DNA of 64,000 bases, taken from positions 3,251 through 67,250 of IMG/VR virus record IMGVR_UViG_3300009506_000018. One strand, 5' to 3'. The translations under genes and the position numbers were made by a program. Positions 20,030 through 47,705 of the stretch are shown piece after piece. Source of the stretch: a virus. How positions within the stretch are numbered: the stretch's first letter is position 1; every line of letters begins with the position of its first letter. Below the pieces are notes generated by a model that worked only from the letters and a program-made list of their open reading frames with translations, had not been told where the DNA came from and searched no databases.

Positions 20030-23000
20030 ATGGCAACGCCCGCCGGGCCATGGACTAAGTACCAACGGCCTCAGAATCCAGACCCTCGCCTGTTCGAGGC
20101 GGTCCGCCATGCTGAAAGCGGTGCTGATCCAAACGCGGTATCGCCAGCTGGAGCGATCGGCACGATGCAGACCATGCCGGAGACGCTGCGCGATCCGGGC
20201 TATGGTGTCGAGCCATTGCCGGAGCACCAGTGGGACGACTCGACGGCGCTGCAGAAAAAGGGCGAGGAATACTTGTCGGCCATGTACCGCAAGTACGGCG
20301 GGGATATCGAGGCGGCGCTGATCGCTTATAACGCTGGCCCGGGCAATGCCGACAAGTGGCTGAAGTCCAACCGGGATTACTCGGTGCTGCCGAAGCGGCA
20401 GGAAACCGAGCCTTACGTGCAAAAAGTCATGGCCCGGTACGAAGCGCCACAGGAGGCCGGTCCATGGTCCCAGCATCAACCCGAGGGACCATGGTCGAAA
20501 TACCAGCAGCAACCTCCGCCGCAGGAGAGCCAGTTCAACCCGGAAGGTGCCATCAATCCTGAGACGGGTCGGCCATGGACTCAGGAAGAGGTGGACGCCA
20601 CGGCTCTGGACCAGAAAGACTTCCTTGCGAAATACCCGGGATCGCGGGTGCAGCAGGAGATGGACCAGAGATTTGCGGCTTCGCAGCAAGGCCTGACTCA
20701 GTCAGGAGAAGCGGCTGGCCCATGGGCAAAATATCAGCCATCCGGGGAAGCCCAGCCAGAAGACGAGAGCTGGCTGGGGCAGTTCACCAAAACACTGGGG
20801 GCGCGGATATTCAGTGGAACGCTGGGCGTTTCTAGCATGGCATGGGATACGCCCGAGGCCGCTCATCGCTACCTTCGCGGAGCCTACAGCAAGCTCAAGG
20901 ATTCTGGTGTCCCTGACTGGCTGAATCCATTCGGGGCCCCGACCCTGATCGCCGACAAGATTGCCAACGGCCATGACTTCGGCAAGTTCCATGCTGCCGG
21001 GGCCAGCGACATGGCCGACAGGATCGACCAGTCGGTGAAGTTCCTCGACGAAACCCTCCCGGCCTTCAAGGATGCAGTGGCGGGAACCGAGGAAGCGCAG
21101 CGGGCATGGGATCGATTCCTCGAAAGCGATGGTGATTTCGAGATCCTGTGGAACGCCGCTAAGGATCCAGAAGTCCTCGGTGCCGCGATTGGACAGGGGC
21201 TGCCCACACTGCTGGCCGCATATCTCGCCAATAGGACCGGGCATGGCCTGCCGTTCATGGGCTGGATGGAGGCCATGGACTCCGCCCAGAACGCCCAGCA
21301 GTTCGAGGAGATGACCGGCGAACAGATCTCCGATGGCGAGTTCGCAGCCGCTACCGCTTCAGCCGGGGCGATCAACGCCGTGCTGGAGAAGACGGGTCTG
21401 GACGCCATCCTCGGCAAGCTGCCGGGCGGCAAGTCTCTCGTGGGCCGGTTCCTGCTGGCGCTGGGCACCGAGGGCGGGACGGAATTCATTCAGGAGGTGG
21501 TGCAGAACCTCAGTGCCCTGATCTACGACGAAGAGGAGCGCGACCAGCTCAACGAGGCCATCGACAGTGGCGACTGGGAGGCTGCGGCAAAAATCGTCAC
21601 CCGTGGCGGCTTCCCAGCGTTTCTGGGAGGCGCTGGGCTGGGTGCCGCTGGTGGTGGGCTGGGTTACTGGGCAGATCGCATCAGAGCGGCTGAGACGGGC
21701 TCTGAGCCGCCTCCACGGGATGACATCATCGAGAGAGCGGACGAGGTCAGCGTCAGCGAGGCCGAGGAAGCCGGGATCGAGGTCAGGGACGTCAGCAATG
21801 ACACCCTCCAAAGGGTGGCTACCGGCGACCCCCTGACTGACGAGGAGATGTTCAACCTGCAGCGAGCCGGGCTGGCTCGGGTATTGAATGCCGGGGAGGG
21901 GCGGATGGCGCTCACCCCGGAGGGCAAGAGGCAGCTGGCCGGAGAAGGGCGGTCCCGGGCGCAGGCACTCGACCAGAGGATCCGGCAGTCAAGGACGCCG
22001 ACGCTCAGAGATCTTACCGATGCCGAGCTGCGCCAGCGGGTCCGCACCATCGGTGACATCGAGGGCCTGATCAAGCGGGCCCCGCCAGAAATGGATCTGG
22101 CGAAGAAAGTCACCGGCAAGGTGTTCTACGCAGACCCTGAGGCTACCGGCCTGCCCCGGCTGATGAAGAACCGCTCCGAGGGAATGCTGTCGGTGACGAT
22201 CTCGCCGCAGAACCCGCTGCAGCTGCCAGCCGAAGCCTTCAACATGCTGGAGCCAGAGGAGATCGAGTTCGCCCGGCGCGAAGGTTATGACGCCATTATC
22301 AGCGATAACGGCGAGGCGATGGCGCTGGATCCGGGGATCCTGCGCTATGTGCGTGGGTCCGGCGACGACGGGGTGGACAAGTACGGCTTCACCAAAGAGG
22401 CGAAGAACGATTTCGAGGCGCTGGCAGATGCGCAGCGCGGCAAGCCCGAGATGGCGATGCTGCGGGCCGCACGGGTGGTAGGGGGCGGCGTCATGCAGGT
22501 CATGACCGAACATCTCGGCGACCTGACTCATCGTATGTCTGAGCGCACCGCCAACGAGAACCCGGATCAGGGTCTGGAGTTCGTGTGGCCGAAGGTCAGG
22601 CGCGGAATCAGCTTCCTGACGAATCCCTATGGCTTCAAGCGAGAGTTCGAGGAGAACCTCAGGAGCAACTTCCGGCACTGGCAGGAAGAGCCTCGATACA
22701 GGCCGAGGTGGTTCAACAAGCTCGTCGAAACTACCGGCAAAGAGCCGACCTTCGAGGAATACCGGAAGCTGGTTGACCGGGCCCTCAAGGAATACGCGGA
22801 CGAGCATCGCCAGCTGCCTGTCTACAACGAGGCCCAGAAGCTGGCCCGTGATATCGCGGTGGCACTCGGTGAGCAGCGGTTCGATCTGGTCACCTCGAAG
22901 CTGGAACGCCTGCGCGAAATGATGGTCAACGACGAGGGCAAACCAGATATCGAGAAGTGGGTTAGTTATGCCCGGCGGCATCCATCAATAACCTCCCCTT

Positions 23001-26000
23001 CCCTGTCGCGCACGCGACGTCGCCGCCGGGCACCTTCTGGAGAGTGGTATCAGGATCGATACCCGACTCTAGGCGAGAGGCCGGTCGGAGCGCCGCCGGG
23101 GATCAAGGACATCCGGGCAGTGGGGCGCTTCGTCACGAAACTCCGCAACCGGGTGCGCCGTGGCGAGGGCAAGGATGGCGGCGGTCGCAATCTGATCCCG
23201 CCTGATGCGTGGACGTGGTACGAGGATGCCGGATCTCTCATCCGCAAGCTCGTCAAAGGCGACATGCAGGATATGGAGAAGATGGTGCGCCTGCTGGCGC
23301 TCATGTCTCCGAACACTTCCGTTGAAACCAACGTCACGAAGTGGATCACCGGGATCTACAGGGCCTACAAGGAAGGTCGTCTCAGTGATCTGACTCAGAT
23401 CCCCGGGGCCCTGATGGGGAACGAAGATCTGATCAGCGCGCTCGAAGCCGACGAGCTGACGATCAATACCCGGGGCGTTGGCCCGAAGCTGCTGAACTTC
23501 TACCGCAACCTGTGGGATGCGACGTTCGAGCAGGACCGCTACCCGGATGCGGTCACCATCGATCTGTGGATAGCGCGAGAGTTCGGGTTCACCAACCCAA
23601 AGAAGGTCATCGACACGCAGTACGAATTCGCCCGGAAAGTTCTGGTCGATGCCACCGCTGACTACAACGAAGAGTACGGCACCAGCTGGAAGCCGCGACA
23701 GTTTCAGGCAGCCCTGTGGGTATTGGCCCGGGGTGGGAAGCGCGGGTCGTTCGCCGAGCTGATTCGCGGCTCGTCTGCCAATGCCGCTTTCGAGACGATC
23801 CCGTCAGAGAGCTTCAACGAAGGACGTGTGCTTGCCCGGTTGACCGACGAAGAGCGCGTCAAGTACACCGAGGAAATGCTCGATGTGCTCGGCACCGAGG
23901 ACGGGCGCAACGAACTGCTCGATGCGATGGGTCTGCCGCTGTACGTCACGCAGCAGATGCGTGGGGCCTACATGGGCACTACCGCACCCGGGGCGCTCAT
24001 GGAAGCGCCGCTGCTGAAGGCTGCCGAAGGCTATGACCGCGAGACGGCAGACACGATCGCGATGGCGCTGCAGTACATCTACAAGCAGGACTCGGTAATC
24101 TGGTTCCGGCCCGTCAAGAGCGAGGCCAAAGAGCCGCCCTCTCCGAATGAGGAAGGCTACGATCAGGCGTTCGCCGTCAGATTCGACAAGGCCCTGACCA
24201 GCGAGGACATCGGCCTGTTGGCGGCGATGCTGGAACAGTACTTCCCGGGACAGGGGTTCACGGTCACCGAGCCGGACGAGATCACCCTGATCAATCTGGA
24301 CGGCATTGACCCGAAAACTGGGGAGGCTCCGGCCACGCCCAGAAAGAAGGCCGCGAACAACGCGAAATGGCTGGACGGGATCCGCTCGTGGCTCTCGGAA
24401 ATTTCAACACCTTTCGGTATAATTGGAGCCGATACTTCGCCAATGACGGTGGAGTCGTCTGGATACAGGAGAACCATTCATGACTGGGAAGCTGACGAAA
24501 AAGGATCTCGACTACTTGATGAAATACAAGCCCGACGCCCGGGCCTTGAATCGCGGCTTGACGATTGGCGTGGGCGGGCCGAACAAGTCACGAAGCGGTG
24601 GGTCGGTAGCGCAAAGACGGCATCAAGGCCAGCTTCCGCACCAGTACCCGTGGATCGACTCGACCACGGAGGACGAGCGCAAGTAGAAGTCTATGGTCGG
24701 TTCGGTTCCTTGCGAAAGGAACCGACTACCGATCGCCTCAAGATCTACAACCTGCGGCCAGCGATCGAGAATCCGCAGGGCACCACCCAGAAGCTCCTAG
24801 ACGATTACGGATTCGAGGTCGAAGTATTCAGCTTCGACCCCGAGCGGTTCCGCCTGCCCGAGCTGAAGAAGCGCGGCTATGAGCAGGGTGTCGTCTGGAT
24901 CTATGACCCCGAGGTCAAGCGGGGTTCATTCAATGATGCCGAGTACACCCGGGCATGGCGCGTCTCGCACGAGATCGCCCACGCGATCACCGAGCAGCTC
25001 ATGGAGGAAAGGTACGGGCCGAGCTTTCGCTACGGCAGGCTGGGCCGCATCGCCTTGCTGCCACGCGGCAAGCCACCGAGGCAGACTCTGGTGGAGCAGC
25101 GCCCGCTGACGCTGAAGGAAGCGCAGCGTGCGGTGGAATGGGAAGACCTCGCCTTCAGGGTGCAGCGCATGCTGCTGGAGCAGGTCGGTATCAGCATCAA
25201 CGAAGAGCAGTTCACTCAGGAGTACAACACCAACCTGTCGGATGCGATGTATCGCAGCCTGACTGGTGAATTTGGAGATCCCGGTGAGTACGGGTTCATG
25301 CCAAATGCCGCCCGTCGGGTGCCCGTCAGGGACGTCCTCAGGGCGCTGGAGAAGACAGAGGAGCAGCTGGCGAAGGTAGCCGGTAGGAAACCCACCGAGG
25401 GTATCGATCTCGATTCATGGGAGCGCATCCCAGAGTCAGAGCTGCGCAGGGTCATGGACCAGCGCCGAGCAGACAACCAGTCCCCGACCACAGGCGAGAG
25501 CCTCGATGACATGCGTATCAGCGTCAACGAGGACGGCACTCTGCGCCTGAAGCAGCCGAGGCGGATGAGCCGCAAGATCAAGGTTTCGACGCCCGAGTAC
25601 GGCAAGAACGTCGAGGCCATGGTCAAGGAGTGGATGGAGGGCACCGAGGCCAACCCGTTCGGTGCGCCAGAGCGCATCATCGAGTGGAAGGCAGCCGCCC
25701 AGATCCGCCCCGCCGACAAGGATACGGTGAGCATCGAATCCATTCGCGCCTTCGAGATGCACAAGGGCGATGGCGGCATGGCGCTGCGCCGAATTGTGGA
25801 GCTGGCCGACAAACATGGGGTGACGTTGCAGCTCAGCCCCGTTCCCTTTGGCGAGGGCGGGCTGACTCGCAAGCAATTGGTGGACTGGTACAAGCGGAAT
25901 GGTTTCCGCCTGCGACCTGAGGCCCCGTTCGTTTACGAGCGCAAGCCCAGAAAGGCCACGCGCTTCAGCAAGAAGAGGACCAACGAGGGCAAGGGGCTGG

Positions 26001-29000
26001 GCAAGGCGGGCGTGCAGAACGCTGTTCGACAGGTCTACCGGCGTATGAATTCAGCGCCCCGGGTCGTTGTCGTCGATACCGTTGAAGACCTGCCCCACGA
26101 GGTCTACCTGAAGCTGCTGGAAGAGCACCAGCGGGATCCGAAGAAGAACGCCCTCGGCAGGACACAGGGGCTGTATGACATCCATGGCGCGTTCGATACC
26201 GTTTACCTCATCGGTGCCAACATCAACACCAACGAGGAAGCGATCGACGTCCTACTGCATGAGATCGTTGGTCACTACGGGACACAGGGTGTCCTGTCCG
26301 TTCAGCAGTGGGAACGGGTCATGGACCGTATCTACAACACCTTCCCAGATCTGGTGAAGGACGCCGCCGAGCGTAATGACCTGAACATGGCAGACCTCGC
26401 AGAGCGACGCATCGCATCGGAAGAGGTCATTGCCTACTACACCGGGCAGGCCCTGCATCGGAAATCGATCCCGCAGAAGATGAAAATGATCATCGAGGAT
26501 CTGGTCGAGATGTTCCGCGTCTGGCTGAACCGGGCACTCGGCAAGGGCCACGGGATCACGAAGCGGCAGATCCGTGGAATCATCGCGGAGGGATGGAACT
26601 TCGTTCACCGCCCCGGAGGTTACAAGCATCAGGCGGTCAGGCTGCACAAGAACCACCGCTACTCGATGTACTCGCCGTATCTTTACAGCGCCCTGCACGA
26701 CTGGCTCGGCTCCGTTCCAGAGATCAAGTCTGGCGGGCGGACGAAGGCCCAGTGGGAACAGGAGATTGCTGCGGCAGTGAAGAAGGGCCTGATCAAGCAG
26801 GAAGAGCTTGACTGGTCAGAGCTGGAAATACTCCTAGAAAACCCGACCATCAACGATATCTATCGGCACTGGAGCGGACAGCGTGATGACAAAATCGACG
26901 AGGTTTTCCATCTCTATCCCGACAAGGATGTCGAGGCGGCGTACCGTCGCAAGGATGAGATTGATATCGAACGCCGGGAGATCCTCGACGAAAAACTTCC
27001 CCACACTATTTGGCCCGGACGGACTGATATGTATCACCGCAAGTCAATCATCAAAGCGATGGTTGACGGCACGGTCGAGATCAGCCGGGCCGGAATCGAA
27101 ACCTACGACCAGAAGTACAGCTGGCAAGACTATACGCAGGGACTGAACGACACCGACGCCGCCTACAATTCCGCGAAGCGGCTGGTCAAGCGCCTGCGCG
27201 AGATGGAGGAGGAATACGAAGACGTCCGCGACATGATCCAGCGGTATGGTGCCCGGCCAGCTAACAAGATTCCTGTTGCCGTGGTGCAGAACTGGGTGGC
27301 TGAGAACGGGGTCAAGATCGACGTCACCGGGCCCACCTCGAACGTCGATTGGGATGACGCCGCGACCTTCGATGCGAATTACCCGGACAACGAGGACCAC
27401 CCAGAGTATTCGGATCTCGACGAGTTCATCGAGGAGAAGGCCTCAGAAGAGCTGGACGAACTGTTCAGCGGCGACCTGCTCGCGAAGATGGAGGACAGCT
27501 CGTGGCGCGGTATCGCCGAGGCCATGTTCGACAACGAGATGGAGCTTGAGGAGGGCGAAGACTATGAAGAGGCCCTGCTCGAATATGCCTCCCACAACGA
27601 GCATCTGATCGACGAGGACTATACCGAGAACGAAATCAAGAGCCAGATGCGGGTTGATGAATGGGAGACTGAATACAAGGAAGGGCTGATCGCGGAATAC
27701 AACTGGGACTTCGAGAATGTCGAGTTCAGGGTGCAGGGCAATCGGCATAACGACGAGTTCGATCTGTACATCGACGGGAGCGAATACGCCTCCAGCATAG
27801 CTGGCGATGATATTGACTATTACATTCGCGAGTGGGGGCAGGAGCAGGCCAACCAGCCCGGCACAAGGTGGTCGCAATACACCCTGCCCGGCGGCACTGA
27901 CTATGAAGAAACCCTGCTGCGATGGGACCGCAAGGAAAACCTGTTTACCGCCAGCGCCCACTGGGACGATATCAGCAACATCATCGTCCACCTGCGGCAT
28001 GATATCCGCGAAACACCTGATGGCGAGAGGGTGTTCTTTATCGACGAGATCCAGTCCGACTGGCATCAGGAGCTGCGCGATATGGGGCGCAGGGATCCGA
28101 AGCTGGCGCAGCGCCTGAAAGAAGAGATCGTCGAGGTTCATCAGGCGTACAACAAGAACATCAGACCGCAAGGCGAGAAGGCGATCCTCGACGCGCTTCA
28201 GACGATGAGCGTCAAGGACATTCTCGACTTCATCATCTACGGCGAGACTCACGAGCAGTGGGATAACAATCCGATTGATGAGTTCGTCGTGTCAAAGCCA
28301 TCGGCCTTCAATTACCGCAAGCAGTGGCTGGAGCAGGCGGTTGGCAAGAACCCCAGAAACCAGTTCAAGGAGTTGAGCGGGCTCGACAGCAAGCACTCGG
28401 GGATGCTCGGCGTGGTCAGCGACAAGATGCTGGACATGCTGGGGACGTTCGCCAATGCCGATCTTCTCGCCCGGCTCACAGATACCCAGCTGGCTCCGGC
28501 GGTAGGCAAGTTCGATGCGGCTACCGGAGCGATTATCGCCAACGCCCTGATGGGCAAGTTCCCCTACATCAAGGAGGGGTCGAACGGGCGCAAGATGATC
28601 GCTTACCCGAAGGTCAACATCGACGAGTCCGGTCCTGACCACAGCTATGTCTGGCACAACAACGACCCCGCTCCAGACTGGCGCAAGGGCGAATTCAAGG
28701 ACGCGGTCATTACGCCGCAGGACTTGCAGCAGATCTTCGAGCCGGGTCGCGCTCAGGCCATCAAGGATGCGCTGATCAAGACCATGCTGCGGGAGCTGAA
28801 GATCGCAGATGAAACCTACGACCCGAGCCATCCTGAGTTCGACCAGCAGAACAGGCTGGCGACCGGCGCGATGGCAGAGGCGCTGTACAGGTATCTGGAC
28901 AAGGTCAGCAGCACCGGGCAGGGGCCATTGTTCGATATGGCCTATGGCGCAGACAAGCTGCCTGCCAGCAAGCTCGCGGAAGAATTTACCGAACGCGGTC

Positions 29001-32000
29001 ATGAGTTCAGGCTCAGCTCGCTGGTCACCGACTTGAAGAGCTGGCGCAGCAACTTCATTGACGGGATCCAGCTGGAACTGCAGGAGCGCGAGGATAAGAT
29101 CCAGCGTGCAGAGAGCGGCATGGATCCAGCTCCGTTCGAAAAGTCATACCACTTGCTGGCATTGAAGTGGGCCATGGCGGAGGCGACCCGCCGTGGCATC
29201 AAGAAGGTCGCTATCGCCAACGGCGAAGTGCATGGGTTCCGCTGGTCCAGCGGCAAGCTGTACGACTACGTCGAGGTGATGGCGTCTTCGACAGTCGAGG
29301 GTTTGCAGCTGTCCAACAACCGGCAGGGCTTCAGCAACCTGCCAGCAGAACCAATGCCGCAGAACACCGACTTCAGGGATACCAGCATCGCGAGGAAGTA
29401 CCAGAAGGCACAGCAGGAAGGATACGAAGGGGGCCTGTTCGAGTGGGTCAACGAGAACGTGGACAGAATCTACTGGATCACCACGTATGAAAATGGCGAG
29501 GCTATTACGAGGTTCGCCGCATCCCGTGAAGAACTGCCCCAGTGGCTCGGGCCGATGGTGGCCCAGAAGGTGATCGAGGACGAAGAGCTGGAGCGGTCGC
29601 GTACCGGCAATGATTCGACCTTCGTCGCCGTCGATGCGATCGAGGTGGCCGGGTACCGTCAGGCGACGGCGGGCGGCTACTCGTCGAAGCAGATGACTGG
29701 CAGCCGGGCGATATACAACACCATCCAGCCCAACGTGTTCACCAACAAGCTGTTGAAGAAGTACGGCGCGAAGGTGGTGTGGGGCCCGATCAAGGGCAAG
29801 CCTGATCTTTCTGAGGGAACGATTCCGTATTTCGACAGGCCGGTGAAAGATGTCGAGAAGGATATCCGCAAGAACTACCGCGTTGTCGAAGATCGCCTGA
29901 CCGAGGAAGAGCTTAACGACTACATGACCAACCTGTACGGGAAGAAGGTCATGGCCCCGGAGGACGTGGATTACGGCAAGTACCGCATTCCGCTGCACGC
30001 CGTTGGTCCGGCACATCAGGATGACGCCGTTCACCGCTCGGTGATCTGGAGAGAAATCACCGAGAAGGACGAGAATGGCGAGCTTGTCGGCAGCGGCAGG
30101 TTCAAGGAGCAGGAAGTAAACGATTACTACCTGATCTCCACCGAGCAGGAATACAACGACGAACTGGAGAAGATCAGAAAGACCCCGGTCTATGCCCTGC
30201 AAAAGCACAAGATCTTCGCCACACACGAAGGCGATAAGGCCATGTGGGCGTGGGAGCTTGACCCGGCCAACGGTTACGGTGCCAGACGCTGGCTGATGGA
30301 CAAGCGGGGCAGGACTTACAACTTCGAGCGCAGGGATATCGAGCGCCAGCTGGAGCGCATGGTCAGGACCGAGGTCGAGGAGTCCGCAAGGGCATTCGGC
30401 GCATGGACCATAGAGATCACCCCGAAGCTGAGCGAGCAGCTGCGCACGAAGGGCATGCCGCTGTTCTCCCGCGCCCCTCCCGCCGAGCAGGCCGAGGGCA
30501 TGAAGGAGCTGGACAGCAAGGTCGCCGGGGAAGGGCTTACCAGCCTGCAGAGATTCCAGAATTTCATATTCAAAGTGCTGGGGGTCGAGAACAAGAAGGC
30601 TCACATCGAGCAGGCGTTCATCGACCAGTTCGCCGGAATCCGCCATGCCATCCGCGCTTACTATGGAGACGTGGGGCTGCCGCCCGAACTGGATCCCTAC
30701 AAGCACGCGCACCTGACGACATCAACGGATTCGCAGATCTACATCGCCCTCATGGAAGGGACGCTGGAGTGGCGTGACGGTGCCACCCAGATCAAGGAAG
30801 GCAGTAGCGGCCTGCTGAAGATTCTCGAACCAGTCGGCAAGCACATCGACGAGTGGGGCAAGTTCATGGTGGCCCGCCGGGCGAAGCGCCTGTACCTCGA
30901 AGGCATCAAGGAAGGCTCCCCGGTATTCTTCAACCTGCGCCAGCACTTCGAGCGGACCCGGGCCGAGAACAGGCGTCCGCGCACGATCGAGGCCATGCGC
31001 GAGGCGGCGTGGCAGGACATCCTTTCCGGCGAGCTGGGCACTGAGATCCACGACCAGATCAAGAAGTCAGGCCGGGAACAGCTGCTGAGCCCAAAGGCGA
31101 TCGAGGCTGGCATGTGGCTGGGCGAACAGAATCCGATGTTCGAGACGGTGGCGGATCGATACGCCCAGTTCATGAGCGAGATGCTGGACTGGGCGCAGAC
31201 GGCTGGTGTCATCAATCCCGAGACTCGGCCCCTGTGGGAGAACGCGGACTACATCCCGTTCTATCGCCTCAGGGACAACCAGCTGGGGGCTGGTTTCAGC
31301 GAGCAGTCCGGCACGGTGCCGCCCACCCTGACAGGTACCTCCGCCATGGCCCGGCAGTTCCTTACCCGGGGGCTGGCGAATCAGCGATCGCCGATCCGTA
31401 AGCTGCGCGGCGGCACGAGCATGCTCGGCAATCCGCTGGAAAATATCCTGATCAACCTGAACATGCTGATGCAGACCACCATGCGTAACAACGCGGCGGT
31501 GCTCACCATCGATTCACTCAATGGTTCCGGCATGGTCACGAAGGCGCAGGGCTACGAGTTCCTCGAAGAGAAGACGATCGCCGAGGGCGACCTGAAGCGC
31601 AGGCTGCGGGCGGTCGGCATTGATACCGAAGACATGGATCAGGCTGCTCTCGCGGCACTGAAGAAGATGTGGGTGGTGGATACGCCGAAGGATCCGAACA
31701 TCATCACCATCCTGAGGAACGGCAAGAAAGAATACTGGCACGTCCATGACGAGCTGCTGTTCCGTTCGCTGACGGCAATCAACCAGCGCCACTTCCAGAG
31801 TTTCTTCGGGTCCATGGCGATGGCCCCGTTCCGATGGACGAAGCGCCTGCTGACCACGATGATCACGCTGGACCCTGCATTCATGGGTGCCAACTGGATG
31901 CGAGACGGGCCGATGGCGTTCGTCAACAGCCGGTACGCTAAGATGCTGCGACCCGATCGCTCACTGCAGGGCATCGGCGAGGCGCTGTTCCTGTCGAAAG

Positions 32001-33664
32001 AAATGAAATCGATGATGGCTGCGGGCGGCGCTTTCTACTCCGGCTACATCAATTCCGGCGATCCGGCAGCCATCAGCAAGGCGATGAAACGCGCCATCAG
32101 GCGCAGCGGCGTTCGCGGCAAGATCCTGAACACACCGTTCCGGCTGGCGCATGCCTACAACGACGTCGCTGCCGCCATGGAGAATTCGAACCGCATCGCC
32201 TATGGCTACAAGCCAGCTCTCGATACCACTGGCTCGGTCATCGAGGCGGTGTTCGAATCGAAAGACCTGATGAACTTCGCGAAGCACGGCGACCTGCCGA
32301 TCGTTTCGTTCTTCATCCAGACCGTGCCGTTCCTCAATGCTCGCCTGCAGGGCCTGTATCGCTACGGCCAGCGGCAGATGGGCGAGGGTGTGAAGGCTGC
32401 CGGGGTGACCCTGTTGAAGGCCATGATCATTACCATGGCGACGCTCGCGCTCTACTGGTACAACCGTGACGACGAGCGATACAAGCGGCTGACTCAGGAG
32501 GACAAGGATCTCTACTGGCACTTCTGGATCAACGATATGCACTATCGTCAGCCGAAGCCGTTCGAGGTCGGAGCCCTGTACGGAACCATTCCAGAGCGCA
32601 TGTGGGAATGGATCGAGTCCGATGCTGACGATGCCACGAAGGTCGCCATGGACAGGCTGGGCTGGATCATCGGGGAGATGTTCAACTTCGACCTCAGGCA
32701 GATCCAGCTGGTGAATCCTCTGGTGGAGGCGGCACGTAACTACGACAGCTTCTTCAAGGGCCCGATCGTGCCCTATTACCTTGAGAAAGTGGATCCGCGC
32801 TATCAGTACACGGAGACGACCAGCCCGACTGCCCGGGAGATCTCTGAGATCATGCCGTACGACTGGCCGATGCTGCCGGACTTCATCGAATCTCCGATCA
32901 TGATCGACCACATCCTGCGCGGGTATTTCGGCACACTGGGCAGCTATACCCTGCTGACCATAGACACCATGCTGCGATCCTCGGGCAAGTACCCGTCAGC
33001 GCCGAAGATGAGGGCGGACCAGCTGCCCGTCATGAAGCGATTCTGGCGCGGCTACGAGCCGCCAGTACGGTATGAGAAGGACAGCACCGGGCGCACCGTG
33101 ATCGTTCTTCCTGAGGCCACCGAGGGCGCGACGTTCCCGCGCAGGACCGCATGGGAGTCGATGCTGTATGACTTCCGACGGGCGGCAGTGCAGGTCGAGG
33201 AGACGATGCGTGACATCGAAGAGGGCGAGCGCGTGCCGGATACTCAGGAGGAAGGCTATCTGGCCCGGCGTGCCCGCTACTTCAAGGGGCTGACCAACGA
33301 GCAGGTACTCGACGCGGTCGAGGACGTGAAGGAAGCCTCGGCTGAAATCAGGGAGATCCGTAAAGAGATCGACGAGATCATGCGGGCCCCGTTGCGGCCA
33401 GAAGAAAAGCTCCGCCAGATGGAGCAGAAGTATCGCGAGATCGAGCAGGCGGCGCTGGACTGGTATGTCAACCGCCCGGGATCCGGGTTCAAGCAGCAAG
33501 ACAAGGGCGTGAAGCCGGAGGAGCTGCCGCCGCTGATCATGATGGAAGAAGACTGGAAGCGCCGCAAAAGCATGACCAGTACCGAAGTCATCAGCTGGTT
33601 GCAGAAAGATTACCCGGTCACCGCCGAGCTGGTGGCTGACATGCGGGCAGGAGGGATGAAGTGA
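20030..33664 (+). CDS. Giant polyvalent ejected protein (SLT transglycosylase, ART-like, two zincin motifs, GNAT-like, LPD38-like C-terminus)
   Basis: 4544 aa; AVRHAESG..AIGTMQTMP..AYNAGPG (SLT); HEIAH at 24968; HEIVGH at 26258; LVDWYKRNGF (GNAT); EIQSDWHQ at 28046. Confidence 0.8.
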   Translation: MATPAGPWTKYQRPQNPDPRLFEAVRHAESGADPNAVSPAGAIGTMQTMPETLRDPGYGVEPLPEHQWDDSTALQKKGEEYLSAMYRKYGGDIEAALIAYNAGPGNADKWLKSNRDYSVLPKRQETEPYVQKVMARYEAPQEAGPWSQHQPEGPWSKYQQQPPPQESQFNPEGAINPETGRPWTQEEVDATALDQKDFLAKYPGSRVQQEMDQRFAASQQGLTQSGEAAGPWAKYQPSGEAQPEDESWLGQFTKTLGARIFSGTLGVSSMAWDTPEAAHRYLRGAYSKLKDSGVPDWLNPFGAPTLIADKIANGHDFGKFHAAGASDMADRIDQSVKFLDETLPAFKDAVAGTEEAQRAWDRFLESDGDFEILWNAAKDPEVLGAAIGQGLPTLLAAYLANRTGHGLPFMGWMEAMDSAQNAQQFEEMTGEQISDGEFAAATASAGAINAVLEKTGLDAILGKLPGGKSLVGRFLLALGTEGGTEFIQEVVQNLSALIYDEEERDQLNEAIDSGDWEAAAKIVTRGGFPAFLGGAGLGAAGGGLGYWADRIRAAETGSEPPPRDDIIERADEVSVSEAEEAGIEVRDVSNDTLQRVATGDPLTDEEMFNLQRAGLARVLNAGEGRMALTPEGKRQLAGEGRSRAQALDQRIRQSRTPTLRDLTDAELRQRVRTIGDIEGLIKRAPPEMDLAKKVTGKVFYADPEATGLPRLMKNRSEGMLSVTISPQNPLQLPAEAFNMLEPEEIEFARREGYDAIISDNGEAMALDPGILRYVRGSGDDGVDKYGFTKEAKNDFEALADAQRGKPEMAMLRAARVVGGGVMQVMTEHLGDLTHRMSERTANENPDQGLEFVWPKVRRGISFLTNPYGFKREFEENLRSNFRHWQEEPRYRPRWFNKLVETTGKEPTFEEYRKLVDRALKEYADEHRQLPVYNEAQKLARDIAVALGEQRFDLVTSKLERLREMMVNDEGKPDIEKWVSYARRHPSITSPSLSRTRRRRRAPSGEWYQDRYPTLGERPVGAPPGIKDIRAVGRFVTKLRNRVRRGEGKDGGGRNLIPPDAWTWYEDAGSLIRKLVKGDMQDMEKMVRLLALMSPNTSVETNVTKWITGIYRAYKEGRLSDLTQIPGALMGNEDLISALEADELTINTRGVGPKLLNFYRNLWDATFEQDRYPDAVTIDLWIAREFGFTNPKKVIDTQYEFARKVLVDATADYNEEYGTSWKPRQFQAALWVLARGGKRGSFAELIRGSSANAAFETIPSESFNEGRVLARLTDEERVKYTEEMLDVLGTEDGRNELLDAMGLPLYVTQQMRGAYMGTTAPGALMEAPLLKAAEGYDRETADTIAMALQYIYKQDSVIWFRPVKSEAKEPPSPNEEGYDQAFAVRFDKALTSEDIGLLAAMLEQYFPGQGFTVTEPDEITLINLDGIDPKTGEAPATPRKKAANNAKWLDGIRSWLSEISTPFGIIGADTSPMTVESSGYRRTIHDWEADEKGSRLLDEIQARRPGLESRLDDWRGRAEQVTKRWVGSAKTASRPASAPVPVDRLDHGGRAQVEVYGRFGSLRKEPTTDRLKIYNLRPAIENPQGTTQKLLDDYGFEVEVFSFDPERFRLPELKKRGYEQGVVWIYDPEVKRGSFNDAEYTRAWRVSHEIAHAITEQLMEERYGPSFRYGRLGRIALLPRGKPPRQTLVEQRPLTLKEAQRAVEWEDLAFRVQRMLLEQVGISINEEQFTQEYNTNLSDAMYRSLTGEFGDPGEYGFMPNAARRVPVRDVLRALEKTEEQLAKVAGRKPTEGIDLDSWERIPESELRRVMDQRRADNQSPTTGESLDDMRISVNEDGTLRLKQPRRMSRKIKVSTPEYGKNVEAMVKEWMEGTEANPFGAPERIIEWKAAAQIRPADKDTVSIESIRAFEMHKGDGGMALRRIVELADKHGVTLQLSPVPFGEGGLTRKQLVDWYKRNGFRLRPEAPFVYERKPRKATRFSKKRTNEGKGLGKAGVQNAVRQVYRRMNSAPRVVVVDTVEDLPHEVYLKLLEEHQRDPKKNALGRTQGLYDIHGAFDTVYLIGANINTNEEAIDVLLHEIVGHYGTQGVLSVQQWERVMDRIYNTFPDLVKDAAERNDLNMADLAERRIASEEVIAYYTGQALHRKSIPQKMKMIIEDLVEMFRVWLNRALGKGHGITKRQIRGIIAEGWNFVHRPGGYKHQAVRLHKNHRYSMYSPYLYSALHDWLGSVPEIKSGGRTKAQWEQEIAAAVKKGLIKQEELDWSELEILLENPTINDIYRHWSGQRDDKIDEVFHLYPDKDVEAAYRRKDEIDIERREILDEKLPHTIWPGRTDMYHRKSIIKAMVDGTVEISRAGIETYDQKYSWQDYTQGLNDTDAAYNSAKRLVKRLREMEEEYEDVRDMIQRYGARPANKIPVAVVQNWVAENGVKIDVTGPTSNVDWDDAATFDANYPDNEDHPEYSDLDEFIEEKASEELDELFSGDLLAKMEDSSWRGIAEAMFDNEMELEEGEDYEEALLEYASHNEHLIDEDYTENEIKSQMRVDEWETEYKEGLIAEYNWDFENVEFRVQGNRHNDEFDLYIDGSEYASSIAGDDIDYYIREWGQEQANQPGTRWSQYTLPGGTDYEETLLRWDRKENLFTASAHWDDISNIIVHLRHDIRETPDGERVFFIDEIQSDWHQELRDMGRRDPKLAQRLKEEIVEVHQAYNKNIRPQGEKAILDALQTMSVKDILDFIIYGETHEQWDNNPIDEFVVSKPSAFNYRKQWLEQAVGKNPRNQFKELSGLDSKHSGMLGVVSDKMLDMLGTFANADLLARLTDTQLAPAVGKFDAATGAIIANALMGKFPYIKEGSNGRKMIAYPKVNIDESGPDHSYVWHNNDPAPDWRKGEFKDAVITPQDLQQIFEPGRAQAIKDALIKTMLRELKIADETYDPSHPEFDQQNRLATGAMAEALYRYLDKVSSTGQGPLFDMAYGADKLPASKLAEEFTERGHEFRLSSLVTDLKSWRSNFIDGIQLELQEREDKIQRAESGMDPAPFEKSYHLLALKWAMAEATRRGIKKVAIANGEVHGFRWSSGKLYDYVEVMASSTVEGLQLSNNRQGFSNLPAEPMPQNTDFRDTSIARKYQKAQQEGYEGGLFEWVNENVDRIYWITTYENGEAITRFAASREELPQWLGPMVAQKVIEDEELERSRTGNDSTFVAVDAIEVAGYRQATAGGYSSKQMTGSRAIYNTIQPNVFTNKLLKKYGAKVVWGPIKGKPDLSEGTIPYFDRPVKDVEKDIRKNYRVVEDRLTEEELNDYMTNLYGKKVMAPEDVDYGKYRIPLHAVGPAHQDDAVHRSVIWREITEKDENGELVGSGRFKEQEVNDYYLISTEQEYNDELEKIRKTPVYALQKHKIFATHEGDKAMWAWELDPANGYGARRWLMDKRGRTYNFERRDIERQLERMVRTEVEESARAFGAWTIEITPKLSEQLRTKGMPLFSRAPPAEQAEGMKELDSKVAGEGLTSLQRFQNFIFKVLGVENKKAHIEQAFIDQFAGIRHAIRAYYGDVGLPPELDPYKHAHLTTSTDSQIYIALMEGTLEWRDGATQIKEGSSGLLKILEPVGKHIDEWGKFMVARRAKRLYLEGIKEGSPVFFNLRQHFERTRAENRRPRTIEAMREAAWQDILSGELGTEIHDQIKKSGREQLLSPKAIEAGMWLGEQNPMFETVADRYAQFMSEMLDWAQTAGVINPETRPLWENADYIPFYRLRDNQLGAGFSEQSGTVPPTLTGTSAMARQFLTRGLANQRSPIRKLRGGTSMLGNPLENILINLNMLMQTTMRNNAAVLTIDSLNGSGMVTKAQGYEFLEEKTIAEGDLKRRLRAVGIDTEDMDQAALAALKKMWVVDTPKDPNIITILRNGKKEYWHVHDELLFRSLTAINQRHFQSFFGSMAMAPFRWTKRLLTTMITLDPAFMGANWMRDGPMAFVNSRYAKMLRPDRSLQGIGEALFLSKEMKSMMAAGGAFYSGYINSGDPAAISKAMKRAIRRSGVRGKILNTPFRLAHAYNDVAAAMENSNRIAYGYKPALDTTGSVIEAVFESKDLMNFAKHGDLPIVSFFIQTVPFLNARLQGLYRYGQRQMGEGVKAAGVTLLKAMIITMATLALYWYNRDDERYKRLTQEDKDLYWHFWINDMHYRQPKPFEVGALYGTIPERMWEWIESDADDATKVAMDRLGWIIGEMFNFDLRQIQLVNPLVEAARNYDSFFKGPIVPYYLEKVDPRYQYTETTSPTAREISEIMPYDWPMLPDFIESPIMIDHILRGYFGTLGSYTLLTIDTMLRSSGKYPSAPKMRADQLPVMKRFWRGYEPPVRYEKDSTGRTVIVLPEATEGATFPRRTAWESMLYDFRRAAVQVEETMRDIEEGERVPDTQEEGYLARRARYFKGLTNEQVLDAVEDVKEASAEIREIRKEIDEIMRAPLRPEEKLRQMEQKYREIEQAALDWYVNRPGSGFKQQDKGVKPEELPPLIMMEEDWKRRKSMTSTEVISWLQKDYPVTAELVADMRAGGMK
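24480..24686 (+). CDS. Overprinted 68-aa basic protein nested in the giant gene (alternative frame)
   Basis: CAGGAGAACC RBS 4 nt before ATG; TATAAT at 24418-24423; G/C-ending codons in nested frame while host frame turns A/T-ending; hairpin after stop. Confidence 0.65.
   Translation: MTGKLTKKDLDYLMKYKPDARALNRGLTIGVGGPNKSRSGGSVAQRRHQGQLPHQYPWIDSTTEDERK
24702..24725 (+). other. 10-bp hairpin with GCGA tetraloop after nested ORF
   Basis: TCGGTTCCTT-GCGA-AAGGAACCGA; no U tract. Confidence 0.6.
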
Positions 33665-35548: not shown

Positions 35549-35788
35549 TCACCACCCCCTGAGCTGGCGGAGCCGGGCACGGGCCGCGCTGATGGCGGCG
35601 ATCCGGTGAGAGTAGGTGCCGACCGGGTCAGGATCGTCGCTGCGCCTGCCTTCCCGGGAGTCGGCCTCGACGAAGAAGATCGGGAAGCTGGGGACGATGC
35701 GGTCGATGTAGCCAACGGTCCACACCCAGCGCCCGGCGTTCGGTCCCCGGAGGATCCGGCGGACTTCGTAGGTCAGCTTGTTTTGCAT
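35549..35788 (-). CDS. Hypothetical protein
   Basis: 79 aa MQNKLTYEV...; AGGAGAACC RBS. Confidence 0.65.
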   Translation of the reverse strand: MQNKLTYEVRRILRGPNAGRWVWTVGYIDRIVPSFPIFFVEADSREGRRSDDPDPVGTYSHRIAAISAARARLRQLRGW

Positions 35789-35821
35789 GGCGGTTCTCCT
35801 TCGCATGCGGGTTGATAATGT

Positions 35822-35932
35822 GTGGGAAAACAGTGATTTCCCACGACATCATTATAACACACAATAGATTTCGGCCTTAGATCAATGACTTACAAGGCTG
35901 CTTTCATATAGAAATCAGCCGTAAGTTATTGA
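35822..35932 (-). promoter_or_regulatory. Extended -10 promoter flanked by palindromes
   Basis: TGTTATAAT on minus (35851-35859); GTGGGAAA-N7-TTTCCCAC (35822-35844); 51-bp imperfect palindrome 35882-35932. Confidence 0.7.
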
Positions 35933-35960
35933 GCCTGCGTGACCTTGCGCGGATTTGCGC

Positions 35961-35990
35961 AAAAAAAAGCCCCCGGAATTACCGGGGGCT
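35961..35990 (-). terminator. Rho-independent terminator
   Basis: AGCCCCCGG/CCGGGGGCT stem, 8 T on minus strand. Confidence 0.85.
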
Positions 35991-36120
35991 AGTCTCACTG
36001 CCGGTCACCCGGCCCCATCAAGGCTTTGCAATCCAATCCGGGGCCGACGCCGTTTGCACCTATGGAGGGGAGAACCGGGTGCATTCCAAAAGTAGCACCT
36101 AAATGCCCCCGTACCAACCC

Positions 36121-36405
36121 TCATGTGTCGCCATAGTCACCGTGCCAGCCGGGGCGGCGGTACTTCTCCCATGGCCGACCATAGTGGTAGACCTCCGGGT
36201 TCCTTTCGCACCAGCGCGATTCTCCGGCCATCTCAGCCGCGTTCTCGCATTGGCGCGGGGTGGTGTAGTAGCACTCGTAGATGTCGCCGTCTGTCGCACA
36301 CCACGGCTCTTCGCCGACGAACAAAGTCTCTGCCCTCAGGTTAACCCACAGGGCGCAGCCCAGTCCGATCGCGACGATCGCAATCCACCATTGTCTCTGG
36401 TTCAT
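36121..36405 (-). CDS. Secreted Cys-rich protein, DUF3551-like
   Basis: 94 aa; signal/TM then WC...YEC.YTT..QC...C..NP spacing. Confidence 0.65.
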   Translation of the reverse strand: MNQRQWWIAIVAIGLGCALWVNLRAETLFVGEEPWCATDGDIYECYYTTPRQCENAAEMAGESRWCERNPEVYHYGRPWEKYRRPGWHGDYGDT

Positions 36406-36818
36406 ATCGTCACCTCGCATGGCTTGAAATCGCTCTTCGGAATCAGCAGCTGGGGCGGGCCGAACCTGACCGTGTGGTCGTAGCGCAGCCCAGACTGGAC
36501 CGGCCACGCCTTGTGATAGAGCGCAAACGAGTCGTCCGCGTCTTCCTCGTAGTGAGCCATGAACCAGACGTGCGGGACCAGCAGCCTCACCGACCAGTCG
36601 CGCAGCAGGTAAAAGGACATGGCGTCGATCAGGTAGTGCCCCTTGTCCTCGACGATCTCCTGCCCCGAGTACAGGTTGGCGATGCTGACCACCTTGTCGT
36701 TGCGGGTCAGGGTCGCATGGAAAGGGCGGAAGGTTTCCGCCACCTTCGTCAGGCTCGTGTTCCAGACGCTGCACTTTCCCCACTTGCCGACGGCATCCCA
36801 GATCTTGTTGTCAGTCAT
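36402..36818 (-). CDS. Hypothetical protein
   Basis: 138 aa MTDNKIWD..., ATGA overlaps at both ends. Confidence 0.6.
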   Translation of the reverse strand: MTDNKIWDAVGKWGKCSVWNTSLTKVAETFRPFHATLTRNDKVVSIANLYSGQEIVEDKGHYLIDAMSFYLLRDWSVRLLVPHVWFMAHYEEDADDSFALYHKAWPVQSGLRYDHTVRFGPPQLLIPKSDFKPCEVTI

Positions 36819-37038
36819 CGTCCCGGTCCTCCGTGAAGTATCGGTGAACCTGCACCGTCTCGCCTTCAGGAAGCATCGGCAGCGGGTCGCCCACCGGGAG
36901 CAAAGACCCTCTGTAGGATGCGACAGTCTGGATCCCCGGGGCATCGTTGGGGAGTGACGCCGGAGCAGCCAATAAGTACGCAGAACCCAGCCAGTCGCGA
37001 GCGATCGAACGTCGGCGGGCCAGCGTCTTCTCCTGCAT
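36811..37038 (-). CDS. Hypothetical protein, start uncertain
   Basis: Frame ends overlapping the next ATG; may begin upstream of MQEKTL. Confidence 0.4.
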   Translation of the reverse strand: MQEKTLARRRSIARDWLGSAYLLAAPASLPNDAPGIQTVASYRGSLLPVGDPLPMLPEGETVQVHRYFTEDRDDD

Positions 37039-37090
37039 GCGGGCGTCGTCGCCCCGGAGATCCAGATACGGTGGGAGCGTCAGGCATCGC

Positions 37091-37513
37091 TCAGAAGGGG
37101 ATGTCGTCGTCGAGCTGCGGCTCTTTGGGCGCATTGCTCTGCCCTCCCTGTTGCGGGCGCTGGGCCGGGCGGCTGTCGTTGCGCGGGCTAAGGTTCTCCC
37201 ATAGCGCCACCCGCACCTTCGTGGTGTACCTGTCGTTGCCGTCGCGGTCCTGCCACTTGTCGGTCTGCAGCTTGCCCTCGACGTACACGAGATTGCCCTT
37301 CGAAAGCCATTCTCCGGCCCTCTCAGCCGAGTTTCCCCAGACCTCGCACCGATGCCATTCGGTGCGCTCCTGAAGCTCCCCAGTGTTCTTGTCCTTCCAT
37401 TTCTCAGTGGTCGCCACCGAGAAGTTTGCGACGGCGGTGCCGCCCTGCGTGTATCGGACCTCTGGATCCTGCCCGAGGTGGCCGATCAACTGTAGTTTCT
37501 GCATGCTAGGCAT
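37091..37513 (-). CDS. ssb: Single-stranded DNA-binding protein
   Basis: [42 protein letters not shown]; acidic DDDIPF tail. Confidence 0.97.
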
Positions 37514-37709
37514 CGTGGCTTCCTTTATCACTCCGCAGTGGAGTGGTTGTCATGTTCATTCTGACCTCGGGCACATCAAGGGCGCGAAACTGCACGTCCA
37601 CGCCCTCCGCGAGAAGCGTCTGGTGGGCCCTTGTCTTGCGCCGAGATCTCCCGCTGTCTGTGGTGTCATCGAGGATCTCGACGACCGTTACCCATAGCCT
37701 CCTTCTCAT
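37506..37709 (-). CDS. Hypothetical protein
   Basis: 67 aa, overlaps neighbours at both ends. Confidence 0.5.
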
Positions 37710-38260
37710 GCTGCCGCCATGGCCGTTCTGACCGGCTCCAGCCAGTGATCTGTTTCTCGCTGCATCTTCTCCAGCAGGGAGCCGGGCCCGTCCAGCCAGC
37801 GCACATCGAAGGGGTTCCTGCGATGCCGTTGGCTGGCCCGGGCCACGGGCTTGTCCTCCATGATCTGCTCGGCCACCTGCCGATGCAGCCTGCGTGACAC
37901 CAATTCCAGCACGTGCTCTCCGGCCAGCTCCATTTCCTCGTCGCTCATCTCGTACCGAGCGTGATAGACCTTCTGCTGGGTGCGCTCCGAATAGGTCGCG
38001 ATCCAGCGGGTCCGCTGCGACTCGTAGTCTCGATGGCGGCGGATCTCGATGCCCTTGTAGGTGTACAGATCGTGATCCACCTGCTTCACCCTGTTGTCCG
38101 GGCCTCCGCTGACGATGTAACTACCGCTCATGCTGGCCGGGTTGATGTAGATTGTCCCGCCAGTGGTAGTTCCAGTGGTGGCGATGGTTGAGGTGGTGGT
38201 CGAAGTGTCCGACCAGATCCCGCCCATCCCCATGTTCGCGTAGCTGCTGATTGGTGCCAT
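37706..38260 (-). CDS. Hypothetical protein
   Basis: 184 aa, T-rich N-terminus, coupled to neighbours. Confidence 0.55.
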   Translation of the reverse strand: MAPISSYANMGMGGIWSDTSTTTSTIATTGTTTGGTIYINPASMSGSYIVSGGPDNRVKQVDHDLYTYKGIEIRRHRDYESQRTRWIATYSERTQQKVYHARYEMSDEEMELAGEHVLELVSRRLHRQVAEQIMEDKPVARASQRHRRNPFDVRWLDGPGSLLEKMQRETDHWLEPVRTAMAAA

Positions 38261-38263
38261 GGA

Positions 38264-38683
38264 TTACTTCCTCGTCTGTCGCTTCTCGGTGATCTCCATG
38301 TTCACGTTGGGCAGCCGTTCGAGGATTTCCTTGTACATGCCACGGATCTCGTCGCCGCGCTTCTCCAGCTGCTTCTCCAGCTTGTCGCGGTACTGGTCCT
38401 TGACCTTCGCGATCTCGTTCTGCGTCTTGCGATCCTCCTCGACGCAGCGGCGATCGAACTGCAGATCCAGCTTCTCCATGTGCTGGCGGATCTGGTGCTG
38501 GATGACCTCCTCCTCGATCTGCTTCTGCTTCTTCACCTCGGCCAGCTCACCCTTCGTCTCGCGCAGCTTGTCTTTCAGGTCAGCCCGCTCATCGCGCAGC
38601 TTGTCCACATCGGCCTGCAGCTCATCGATCCGCGCCAGCAATCTGGTGCGGCGTTGCTTCAAAAACGGAATGCTCAGGTTCAC
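38264..38683 (-). CDS. Coiled-coil hypothetical protein
   Basis: 139 aa heptad-rich K/E/L sequence. Confidence 0.65.
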   Translation of the reverse strand: MNLSIPFLKQRRTRLLARIDELQADVDKLRDERADLKDKLRETKGELAEVKKQKQIEEEVIQHQIRQHMEKLDLQFDRRCVEEDRKTQNEIAKVKDQYRDKLEKQLEKRGDEIRGMYKEILERLPNVNMEITEKRQTRK

Positions 38684-40450: not shown

Positions 40451-40494
40451 GCGATTCTCCTGTGTGGCCCGGACACCGCGCCCGGGGTCACTCA

Positions 40495-40542
40495 AATCCT
40501 ACACCCGGGGCCCCATCCGGGCAACCACTTTCTGGTAGGATT
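40495..40542. promoter_or_regulatory. Divergent overlapping promoters
   Basis: Minus: TTGCCC-N17-TAGGAT (40524-40496); plus: TGG-TAGGAT extended -10 (40533-40541); AATCCTAC/GTAGGATT inverted repeat. Confidence 0.6.
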
Positions 40543-40575
40543 CACCCACCGCCTACACCCCTTCAGGAGACGACG

Positions 40576-40827
40576 ATGTCAGAGCCGATCATGCCCGATC
40601 AGATCCCGCCCCATCCCAACCCGGTCCGCCGGTTTCGCGAGTGTCTGCGGATGACGCGGGAGCAGTTCGCCGAGTTGATCGGTGTGTCCCACGAAACCCT
40701 CAGGGTCTGGGAAAAGCGCGTCCCCTCCATCCCCCGGCCAGCCGCCATGAGTAAGCTGATCCACGTGGCCGAGCGCAACGGTTACCCACTGACGGCTGAT
40801 GAGATCAAGGAATTCGCCCGGCGCTGA
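40576..40827 (+). CDS. XRE/Cro-like HTH regulator
   Basis: 83 aa; RECLRMTREQFAELIGVSHETLRVWE HTH; AGGAG SD. Confidence 0.85.
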   Translation: MSEPIMPDQIPPHPNPVRRFRECLRMTREQFAELIGVSHETLRVWEKRVPSIPRPAAMSKLIHVAERNGYPLTADEIKEFARR

Positions 40828-40910
40828 AAAGTGTCGCTGCGCGCAGAGACATATCTTCTGCGAGCAGACGCTATATTTTTCTTCCCCATTGTGTGGTAGC
40901 GTCGGACCCG

Positions 40911-41030: not shown

Positions 41031-41098
41031 GAAGATAAGACCTAGCCAGAGAGGTAAGTAGGTAGGTCTTAAGATCTAGAACAGACTAGGAGAACCGC

Positions 41099-45647: not shown

Positions 45648-45663
45648 GTGGACGAGGCGAACG

Positions 45664-47691: not shown

Positions 47692-47705
47692 TGCTATGGG
47701 TTCTC

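Follow-up and report, generated by a model that had tools for sequence, protein, structure and literature searches.

In phage lambda, the spanin gene Rz1 lies out of frame (+1) within Rz and has its own start; it encodes a lipoprotein that bears a signal sequence and a lipobox and acts in lysis together with Rz. A related arrangement is described here for a stretch of viral DNA of 64,000 nucleotides (hereafter the window), which represents bases 3251–67250 of the 72,059-bp IMG/VR virus record IMGVR_UViG_3300009506_000018, a record with direct terminal repeats. The window contains a giant gene, P0001, for a polyvalent protein of 4544 amino acids, and inside this gene lies a nested open reading frame (ORF), P0002, of 68 amino acids at positions 24480–24686. 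The comparison of related sequences makes it probable, at roughly 0.75, that this ORF is a real and conserved gene, independently initiated and missed by annotation. As in the Rz/Rz1 pair, a larger phage gene wholly contains the coding sequence of a small protein, which is read from the same strand in the +1 frame and has its own start. P0002 differs in lacking a signal sequence, a lipobox and any cysteine, in its predicted disorder, and in its place in an ejection/polyvalent gene and not in a lysis gene.

Two further groups of described systems are close to this locus. In the literature on overprinting, the older frame usually has a genome-like codon usage (PMC8227390), and overlapping genes can be detected by an excess of synonymous constraint (FRESCo, PMC4376164). 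The locus resembles overprinted viral genes in its dual coding, in the suppressed synonymous change of the giant-gene frame (frame 0), in the predicted disorder of the product and in its position between domains; it differs in that the embedded frame is the genome-typical and more strongly selected one, and is also found outside the giant gene. The second group is the polyvalent proteins themselves. Their founding paper (Iyer et al. 2017, PMC5512222) does not contain the terms "overlapping", "frameshift" or "alternative reading frame", and uses "embedded" once, for peptidase domains. Literature searches on this nested gene found nothing, and an out-of-frame gene inside polyvalent proteins appears to be undescribed.

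The giant protein carries three Pfam domains: SLT (residues 8–116), DUF7178 (1062–1236) and LPD38 (4148–4334). These domains make P0001 one of the phage polyvalent proteins as PMC5512222 defines them, and its delivery with the virion is presumed. Its 51 homologues measure 2500–5100 amino acids and have varied domain sets, including Pfam families such as the Zeta toxin (PF06414), PF18760, PF18823 and GNAT-type domains (PF00583, PF13508); the shuffled domains of relatives of 3000–5100 amino acids are a further likeness to the polyvalent proteins described before. The features that define the nested gene are the following:

20030..33664, + strand: giant gene P0001, 4544-amino-acid polyvalent protein (Pfam domains)
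24480..24686, + strand: nested +1-frame gene P0002, 68 amino acids (conserved ORF, coding score, homologous +1 ORFs)
24534..24578, + strand: central motif D-x-P-I-[FY]-S-x-G-[FL]-V-[IV]-G-G, here DARALNRGLTIGVGG (codon table of 20 loci, alignments)
24627..24659, + strand: C-terminal motif G-x-L-P-H-Q-Y-P-W-I-D, residues 50–60 of P0002 (26 distinct sequences)

The nested ORF starts with the ATG at 24480 and ends with the TAG at 24684–24686, and in the order of its parts it consists of a basic N-terminus, the central motif, a low-complexity linker, the C-terminal motif and an acidic tail. The start, the basic ORF of 68 amino acids and the stop are all present as the preliminary description of this DNA had claimed. 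The same description had reported that the giant gene switches here to codons ending in A or T while the nested frame ends in G or C, and this switch is real and extreme. Over positions 24480–24686 the G+C content at third codon positions (GC3) of the giant gene is 0.456 against a mean of 0.784, which is the 0.2th percentile of its 69-codon windows, and the G+C content of its first positions, which are the third positions of the nested frame, reaches 0.783 (99.9th percentile). The codon usage of the nested frame is typical of the genome: scored with a table trained on genes of this phage, the frame has coding log-odds of +0.10 bits per codon, and the 433 other +1 windows of the giant gene have a mean of −0.55, a standard deviation of 0.13 and a maximum of −0.11.

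The conservation of the ORF was followed in two close relatives, L001 and L003, whose amino-acid identity to the window over residues 1350–1750 of the giant protein is 88% and 70%, respectively (L004 and L005 represent the phage of L001 in other samples). Both keep the ORF of 68 codons with the same ATG and stop and without interruption, so that the stops in close homologues that could have spoken against a gene are not found. The level of synonymous change in frame 0 is suppressed over the overlap in both of them and does not show normal variability. Where the amino acid is unchanged, the same codon is used in 87% of cases in L001 (60% over the whole gene) and in 80% in L003 (59%). The windows of best synonymous identity all fall within 24335–24690, and the overlap is in the top 1–2% of windows. 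The divergence of frame-0 third positions is 0.116 in the overlap versus 0.41–0.43 elsewhere for L001, and 0.232 versus 0.48 for L003, which is a 2- to 3.6-fold drop within the clade of the window. As a control, all 28 same-strand alternative ORFs of at least 60 amino acids were traced into both relatives, and the ORF at 24480–24686 is the only one that combines a conserved ATG and freedom from stops and indels with the highest synonymous identity. A second stretch of high synonymous-codon identity to L003 was observed at 29525–29810 (0.83–0.85 versus a mean of 0.59); its GC3 is normal (0.84), it sits under an antisense ORF of 522 codons on the minus strand (29144–30712), and it may be merely a well-conserved domain.

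More distant loci were collected by searching IMG/VR and JGI metagenomes with alignments built from either the giant or the nested protein. They provide about 20 further distinct phage loci, with giant proteins 33–46% identical to that of the window and with GC3 between 0.36 and 0.83. Wherever the segment is covered, an open +1 frame extends over 76–165 codons from stop to stop and the +2 frame contains 1–7 stops; an ATG is found near the start of the +1 frame at every locus. The translated frame of each carries the central motif PI[FY]SxG[FL]V[IV]GG and, last, G-x-LPHQYPW[IL]D, which either forms the extreme C-terminus of the small protein or is followed by an acidic tail of Ser, Thr, Glu and Asp. 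The codon table of the central motif, built from 20 loci, also includes copies that lie outside an open giant-gene frame. In two further independent clades, the frame-0 third-position divergence of an overlap of 83 codons is 0.145 versus 0.18–0.30 and 0.078 versus 0.24–0.32, respectively; in both of them it is about equal to the first-position divergence within the overlap, and the three-base periodicity of frame 0 collapses.

At the C-terminal motif, the entropy at nested codon positions 1, 2 and 3 over the 26 sequences is 0.51, 0.46 and 1.07. In the nested frame, 1090 codon differences are synonymous and 1075 are non-synonymous (50% synonymous), compared with 169 and 1771 in frame 0 (9%) and 229 and 1799 in the untranslated third frame (11%). 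Therefore, frame 0 evolves like a passenger at the motif. The variants at the third positions of the nested codons (CTT/CTG/TTG/TTA; CCG/CCT/CCC; CAC/CAT; CAG/CAA; TAC/TAT) are at the same time the first positions of frame-0 codons, where the residues vary (P/S, V/I, V/L, D/S/H/A/G) and those of the nested protein stay constant. Among lineages whose GC3 spans 0.36–0.83, the frame-0 third positions beneath His-Gln-Tyr-Pro hardly vary, and over such a two-fold range the selection on the giant protein cannot explain this conservation. These substitution patterns show purifying selection on the protein that the nested frame encodes.

Frame 0 of the same DNA is likewise coding. It is open and can be aligned through the overlap in 50 homologues of the giant protein, with recurring H-D-W, R-P-D-L, W-R and A-P-V-P-V-D-R-L, which indicates that the overlap is translated as a segment of the giant protein as well. 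Such an alignable frame rules out two other readings that were considered, a double frameshift that compensates itself and a gap of non-coding sequence within the giant gene.

The small protein is present at seven loci (L033, L034, L038, L039, L042, L046 and L048) in which the −1 frame, the one corresponding to the giant gene, is closed. In L033 and L034 it is a protein of 141 amino acids with an N-terminal transmembrane helix and both motifs; its gene has an ADP-ribosylglycohydrolase gene on one side and a DUF3293 gene on the other, with a type I restriction HsdR gene nearby. The stretch L034:1–2419 looks bacterial, the start of the DUF3293 gene overlapping the stop of the small gene and the C-terminus of HsdR being convergent. 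The differences between L033 and L034 fall on codon positions 1, 2 and 3 in the numbers 8, 10 and 22. The closed −1 frame of these two loci still spells a ghost of the giant protein (H-D-W, S-P-D-L-Q-A-R-L-R-V-W, A-P-V-S-L-A); thus, apparently conserved motifs of frame 0 can be by-products of the sequence of the small protein. The copies of L038, L039 and L042 are short proteins in unrelated contexts, that of L039 near a terminase small-subunit gene. L042 is 88% identical to the phage loci at the nucleotide level, in a stretch that begins 9 nt upstream of the ATG and stops where the PWID motif ends. The neighbour of L046 is a HigB-HigA pair; the match of this locus is limited to the motif, and it is the weakest case of the seven. 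In L048 (positions 2974–3506), from a metagenome-assembled genome (MAG) of Pseudomonadota, an intact small ORF of 102 amino acids overlaps an 89-codon stump of an HExxH domain next to a purN-like gene, as if a polyvalent gene had decayed here and the small ORF had outlived it. The scan of GTDB genomes gave one locus, and the word-index search with the separate 141-amino-acid protein gave only the protein itself and one relative.

These observations bear on the explanation by chance, according to which the ORF is accidental and its conservation follows from selection on the giant protein and from codon bias. ORFs of such size are common in a gene of 61% GC (46 alternative-frame ORFs of at least 68 amino acids, 21 of them on the same strand), for which reason the length of the nested ORF was dismissed as evidence, and, for a fixed giant-protein sequence, open +1 frames are not rare. 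Nevertheless, this is the least probable of the explanations considered: the third positions under H-Q-Y-P hardly change while the frame-0 amino acids do, the synonymous share of frame 0 at the motif equals that of the untranslated frame, the protein persists where the giant frame has stops, and the ORF is the sole conserved one among the 28 controls.

The initiation of the small protein would depend on signals that are located immediately upstream of the nested ATG and are at the same time codons of the giant gene:

24466..24475, + strand: ribosome-binding site (RBS) CAGGAGAACC, the phage's own, 4 nt upstream of the ATG

In frame 0 this sequence is read as taC AGG AGA ACC (Tyr-Arg-Arg-Thr). 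With no more than one mismatch, the 10-mer occurs 23 times in the window versus 5 expected. Its octamer core GGAGAACC has 19 copies there; at 14 sites it stands 1–7 nt upstream of the start of an ORF that is 34 codons or longer, all of them in the early/replication region at 35.8–54.3 kb. The nested site (24468) is the fifteenth start-linked copy and the sole one in the structural half. The assignment of this RBS to the type of the early and replication genes, made in the preliminary description, is borne out by these 14 sites. Start-linked copies were seen only at 35788–54275 and at the nested gene, and no start of a structural gene carries GGAGAACC. The arrangement of the octamer, 4 nt and ATG fits the gene starts of the phage, and in this form it belongs to the clade of the window only. 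Both L001 and L003 keep the exact RBS. The Arg-Arg-Thr that encodes it is an insertion confined to this clade, and it uses rare arginine codons of the giant gene (AGG, 53 of 349 or 15%; AGA, 15 of 349 or 4%). The nested ATG itself derives from a frame-0 His-Asp (CAT GAC). This first ATG is missing from some members of other clades (L008, L012, L018), where a downstream ATG (Met-Ala-Lys) is conserved and would have to serve; the GGAG stretches resembling a Shine-Dalgarno sequence overlap Trp-Glu codons of the giant gene there and are partly by-products of them. On short contigs, automatic gene callers picked the nested ORF of 68 or 80 amino acids over frame 0 (L004:157–363, L005:157–363 and the contig of P0055), and the only database proteins of the small-protein family therefore come from such picks.

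The features of the start region also concern the possibility of a programmed frameshift (+1 or −2), which would yield a truncated protein of about 1550 amino acids ending in LPHQYPW[IL]D and no free small protein. Such a fusion has a parallel in the motif module joined to other N-termini, for example in the transmembrane protein of L034, and the tandem AGG AGA with an internal Shine-Dalgarno sequence lies just upstream of the nested frame. Rare tandem arginine codons and internal Shine-Dalgarno sequences are known stimulators of frameshifting in E. coli. The first ATG, moreover, is not kept in every clade. Against the frameshift, no conserved slippery or shift site was seen by inspection, no formal search having been made, and in several clades the upstream stop of the +1 frame is only 1–2 codons before the ATG, which leaves almost no room for a shift site. 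The presence of an ATG near the frame start at every locus, the perfect phage RBS 4 nt before it in the clade of the window, and the copies outside polyvalent genes, which begin at the homologous ATG, argue in the same direction, and a frameshift is regarded as unlikely.

Upstream and downstream of the ORF, two further elements were compared:

24395..24479, + strand: upstream block, candidate leader or promoter region, about 85 nt with almost no synonymous change
24702..24725, + strand: 10-bp hairpin with a GCGA loop, stems 24702–24711 and 24716–24725, 15 nt after the nested stop

In the upstream block nearly all codons are identical in three lineages, and the top windows of synonymous identity start at 24335–24470. 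The block includes a TATAAT at 24418–24423, read in frame 0 as GGT ATA ATT, in which ATA is a rare codon (11 of the 232 Ile codons of the giant gene). This hexamer is kept in L001 and L003, and an AT-rich −10-like hexamer, GATAAT or TAATAT, is conserved at the homologous place in distant clades. In L007, L009 and L037, with 56–60% GC, a GATAAT (Asp-Asn, in the T-ending codons GAT AAT) lies about 68–70 nt upstream of the first nested ATG. GATAAT/TATAAT may be a conserved −10-like element, and an internal promoter upstream of the nested gene is possible on these grounds. The hairpin is stable (free energy −26.7 kcal/mol, z-score −5). Only L001 has an identical copy; L003 has a different strong stem, and distant homologues have none.

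The preliminary description had joined these elements into a complete unit with promoter and terminator. The TATAAT, CAGGAGAACC and the hairpin with its GCGA loop are all present as listed, the distance of the hairpin from the stop being 15 nt and not 16, but the complete unit is not supported. The scan for sigma-70 promoters found no site and no −35 partner for the perfect −10, although the promoter rules of the host itself may differ, and TATAAT is not enriched in the window (2 copies versus 2.5 expected). The scan for terminators gave no site on the + strand, no U-tract or T-run follows the hairpin, and the hairpin is limited to the clade; judged by its sequence, it is neither a canonical nor a demonstrated terminator. 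The only other TATAAT of the window (35851–35856, minus strand) is an extended −10 (TGTTATAAT). The first leftward early gene has its GGAGAACC RBS about 52 nt downstream of it, and by this position the hexamer is likely an early promoter. No convincing common upstream motif was found when the two TATAAT sites were compared.

A signal at the level of nucleic acid, such as a structured RNA or a DNA site for regulation or packaging, with the open frame incidental, would agree with the synonymous constraint that reaches about 85 nt upstream of the ATG and with the stable hairpin that follows the ORF in this clade. It is a highly improbable explanation of the ORF itself, since the conservation of the motif is three-periodic in the nested phase with synonymous alternatives at the third position, the frame is open in relatives of low GC, and the hairpin is not conserved outside the clade.

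The preliminary description had called the nested gene overprinted, which implies that the small frame is the newer one. This is not supported: the nested frame has the genome-typical codons and the dominant selection at the motif, and it is frame 0 that behaves like a passenger. Because the nested frame also has copies outside polyvalent genes, the reverse is conceivable, and the giant ORF may have grown over an older small gene. Counting against a small gene that came first, the copies of L042, L038 and L048 are near-identical and look like phage-derived fragments, and the opposite order is therefore conceivable too. A wider scenario adds that the older gene became a linker of the giant protein and yet stayed active, that its product is an antidote or regulator of the adjacent ArdC/IrrE-like zincin domain, that the two pass between polyvalent proteins as a single cassette, and that the isolated bacterial copies serve as orphan protection against the effector once injected; as a whole it is rather unlikely. 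The nested ORF could also be the relic of a swallowed gene, functional in the past and no longer translated in this phage. The ancestral-looking codon usage of the nested frame and the copies outside any polyvalent gene would agree with a relic; the constraint that comparisons of close relatives still reveal on the nested frame, in each of three separate clades, and the RBS, which is a derived insertion in this clade, point to ongoing selection for translation and make a relic very unlikely.

The reading of 24480–24686 as a gene translated in its own right would give a protein of 68 amino acids, made in the +1 frame from its own RBS and ATG inside the 4544-amino-acid gene, with an initiation independent of that of the giant protein. 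The same DNA in frame 0 forms a linker in front of a zincin-like domain with an HExxH signature:

24689..25519, + strand: HExxH domain, residues 1554–1830 of the giant protein, beginning one codon after the nested stop

The AlphaFold model of the small protein, made with 26 sequences, is of low confidence, with a predicted local distance difference test (pLDDT) score of 61, a predicted template modelling (pTM) score of 0.18 and one short helix; only the C-terminal motif reaches a pLDDT of about 78. By this model, the small protein looks intrinsically disordered with short linear motifs. The HExxH domain is about 50% identical across 39 homologues, with H94, E95 and H98 invariant, and its AlphaFold model has a pLDDT of 94 and a pTM of 0.90. 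It has no sequence match in Pfam or PDB and no Foldseek match in PDB; its best fold matches are weak, the ArdC metalloprotease (Z 5.6) being followed by PprI and the anthrax lethal factor. In view of the predicted disorder and the two conserved short motifs, the most likely mode of action is that the small protein would dock onto a partner through PI[FY]SxG[FL]V[IV]GG and LPHQYPW[IL]D.

Small genes linked to enzymes are known from effector–immunity cassettes, from orphan immunity genes and from pairs of a zincin and its partner, such as ImmA/ImmR and IrrE(PprI)/DdrO. The present locus resembles them in that a small gene is tightly co-inherited with an enzyme domain and has isolated bacterial copies, some of them beside defence genes, and in that the HExxH domain weakly resembles ArdC and PprI. 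Seven polyvalent proteins of differing architecture share a block that extends from H1484, the codon of the nested ATG, through the HExxH domain; therefore, the nested gene and the domain move together as a cassette. This co-inheritance favours the HExxH domain as the partner of the small protein, which could inhibit it, chaperone it or act as its antidote. The partner role is here deduced from sequence, a difference from the known zincin pairs, and it is held tentatively, at somewhat under an even chance. The main alternative is a target in the host, with expression early in infection, and the early-type RBS with the possible internal promoter would equally fit a small early protein of this kind. 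The immunity or regulator role for a neighbouring effector domain, as put forward in the preliminary description, is not supported as stated; it is kept as a hypothesis that the co-inheritance with the HExxH domain fits.

Several results count against the interpretation given here. In a synonymous-shuffle test of openness, the probability per lineage was 0.07–0.58 and the Fisher combined p was 0.035; the open +1 frame is only weakly improbable given the sequence of the giant protein, and openness, as weak evidence, is not leaned on. The start context is less clear outside the clade of the window. Searches for the P0002 family in Pfam, PHROGs, PDB and the ESM Atlas gave no relative. The sequencing runs in which the window phage was found are DNA metagenomes only, with no RNA run among them. 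Most copies outside a polyvalent gene are without a zincin (HExxH) neighbour, which is a further difference from the known pairs and weakens the partner hypothesis. The predicted complex of the small protein with the HExxH domain had a median score of 0.11 against a mark of 0.32 and is no evidence either way. The existence of a separate nested gene, which was the central proposal of the preliminary description, is nevertheless strongly supported in the comparative record by the conserved ORF, start and RBS, by the constraint on frame 0, by the signs of purifying selection and by the copies outside the giant gene.

Some further searches describe the surroundings of the phage. Blastn and tblastn against deposited phage genomes gave nothing, and the search of protein representatives gave only gene-caller picks of the nested ORF (P0003, P0055) and three spurious repeat proteins. 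A search of sequencing runs indicates that marine-sediment metagenomes contain DNA of the window phage. NCBI assigns the giant protein of the phage of L001, P0004, to a MAG of Gemmatimonas sp. SG8_38_2, where it is called hypothetical; the assignment either points to the host or arose by faulty binning.

Polyvalent proteins are regarded as arsenals that the phage injects along with its DNA, and they are annotated as single giant genes. If the nested gene is real, a conserved out-of-frame protein, placed directly before a highly conserved domain, would escape every standard annotation pipeline, and it would provide a new handle on the control of the HExxH domain. The locus would also be a compact, well-sampled case of dual coding: at least 26 distinct sequences are available, the copies lie within polyvalent genes as well as outside them, and GC3 spans 0.36–0.83. 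A further, testable idea that it raises is that polyproteins may grow by swallowing neighbouring genes in another frame.

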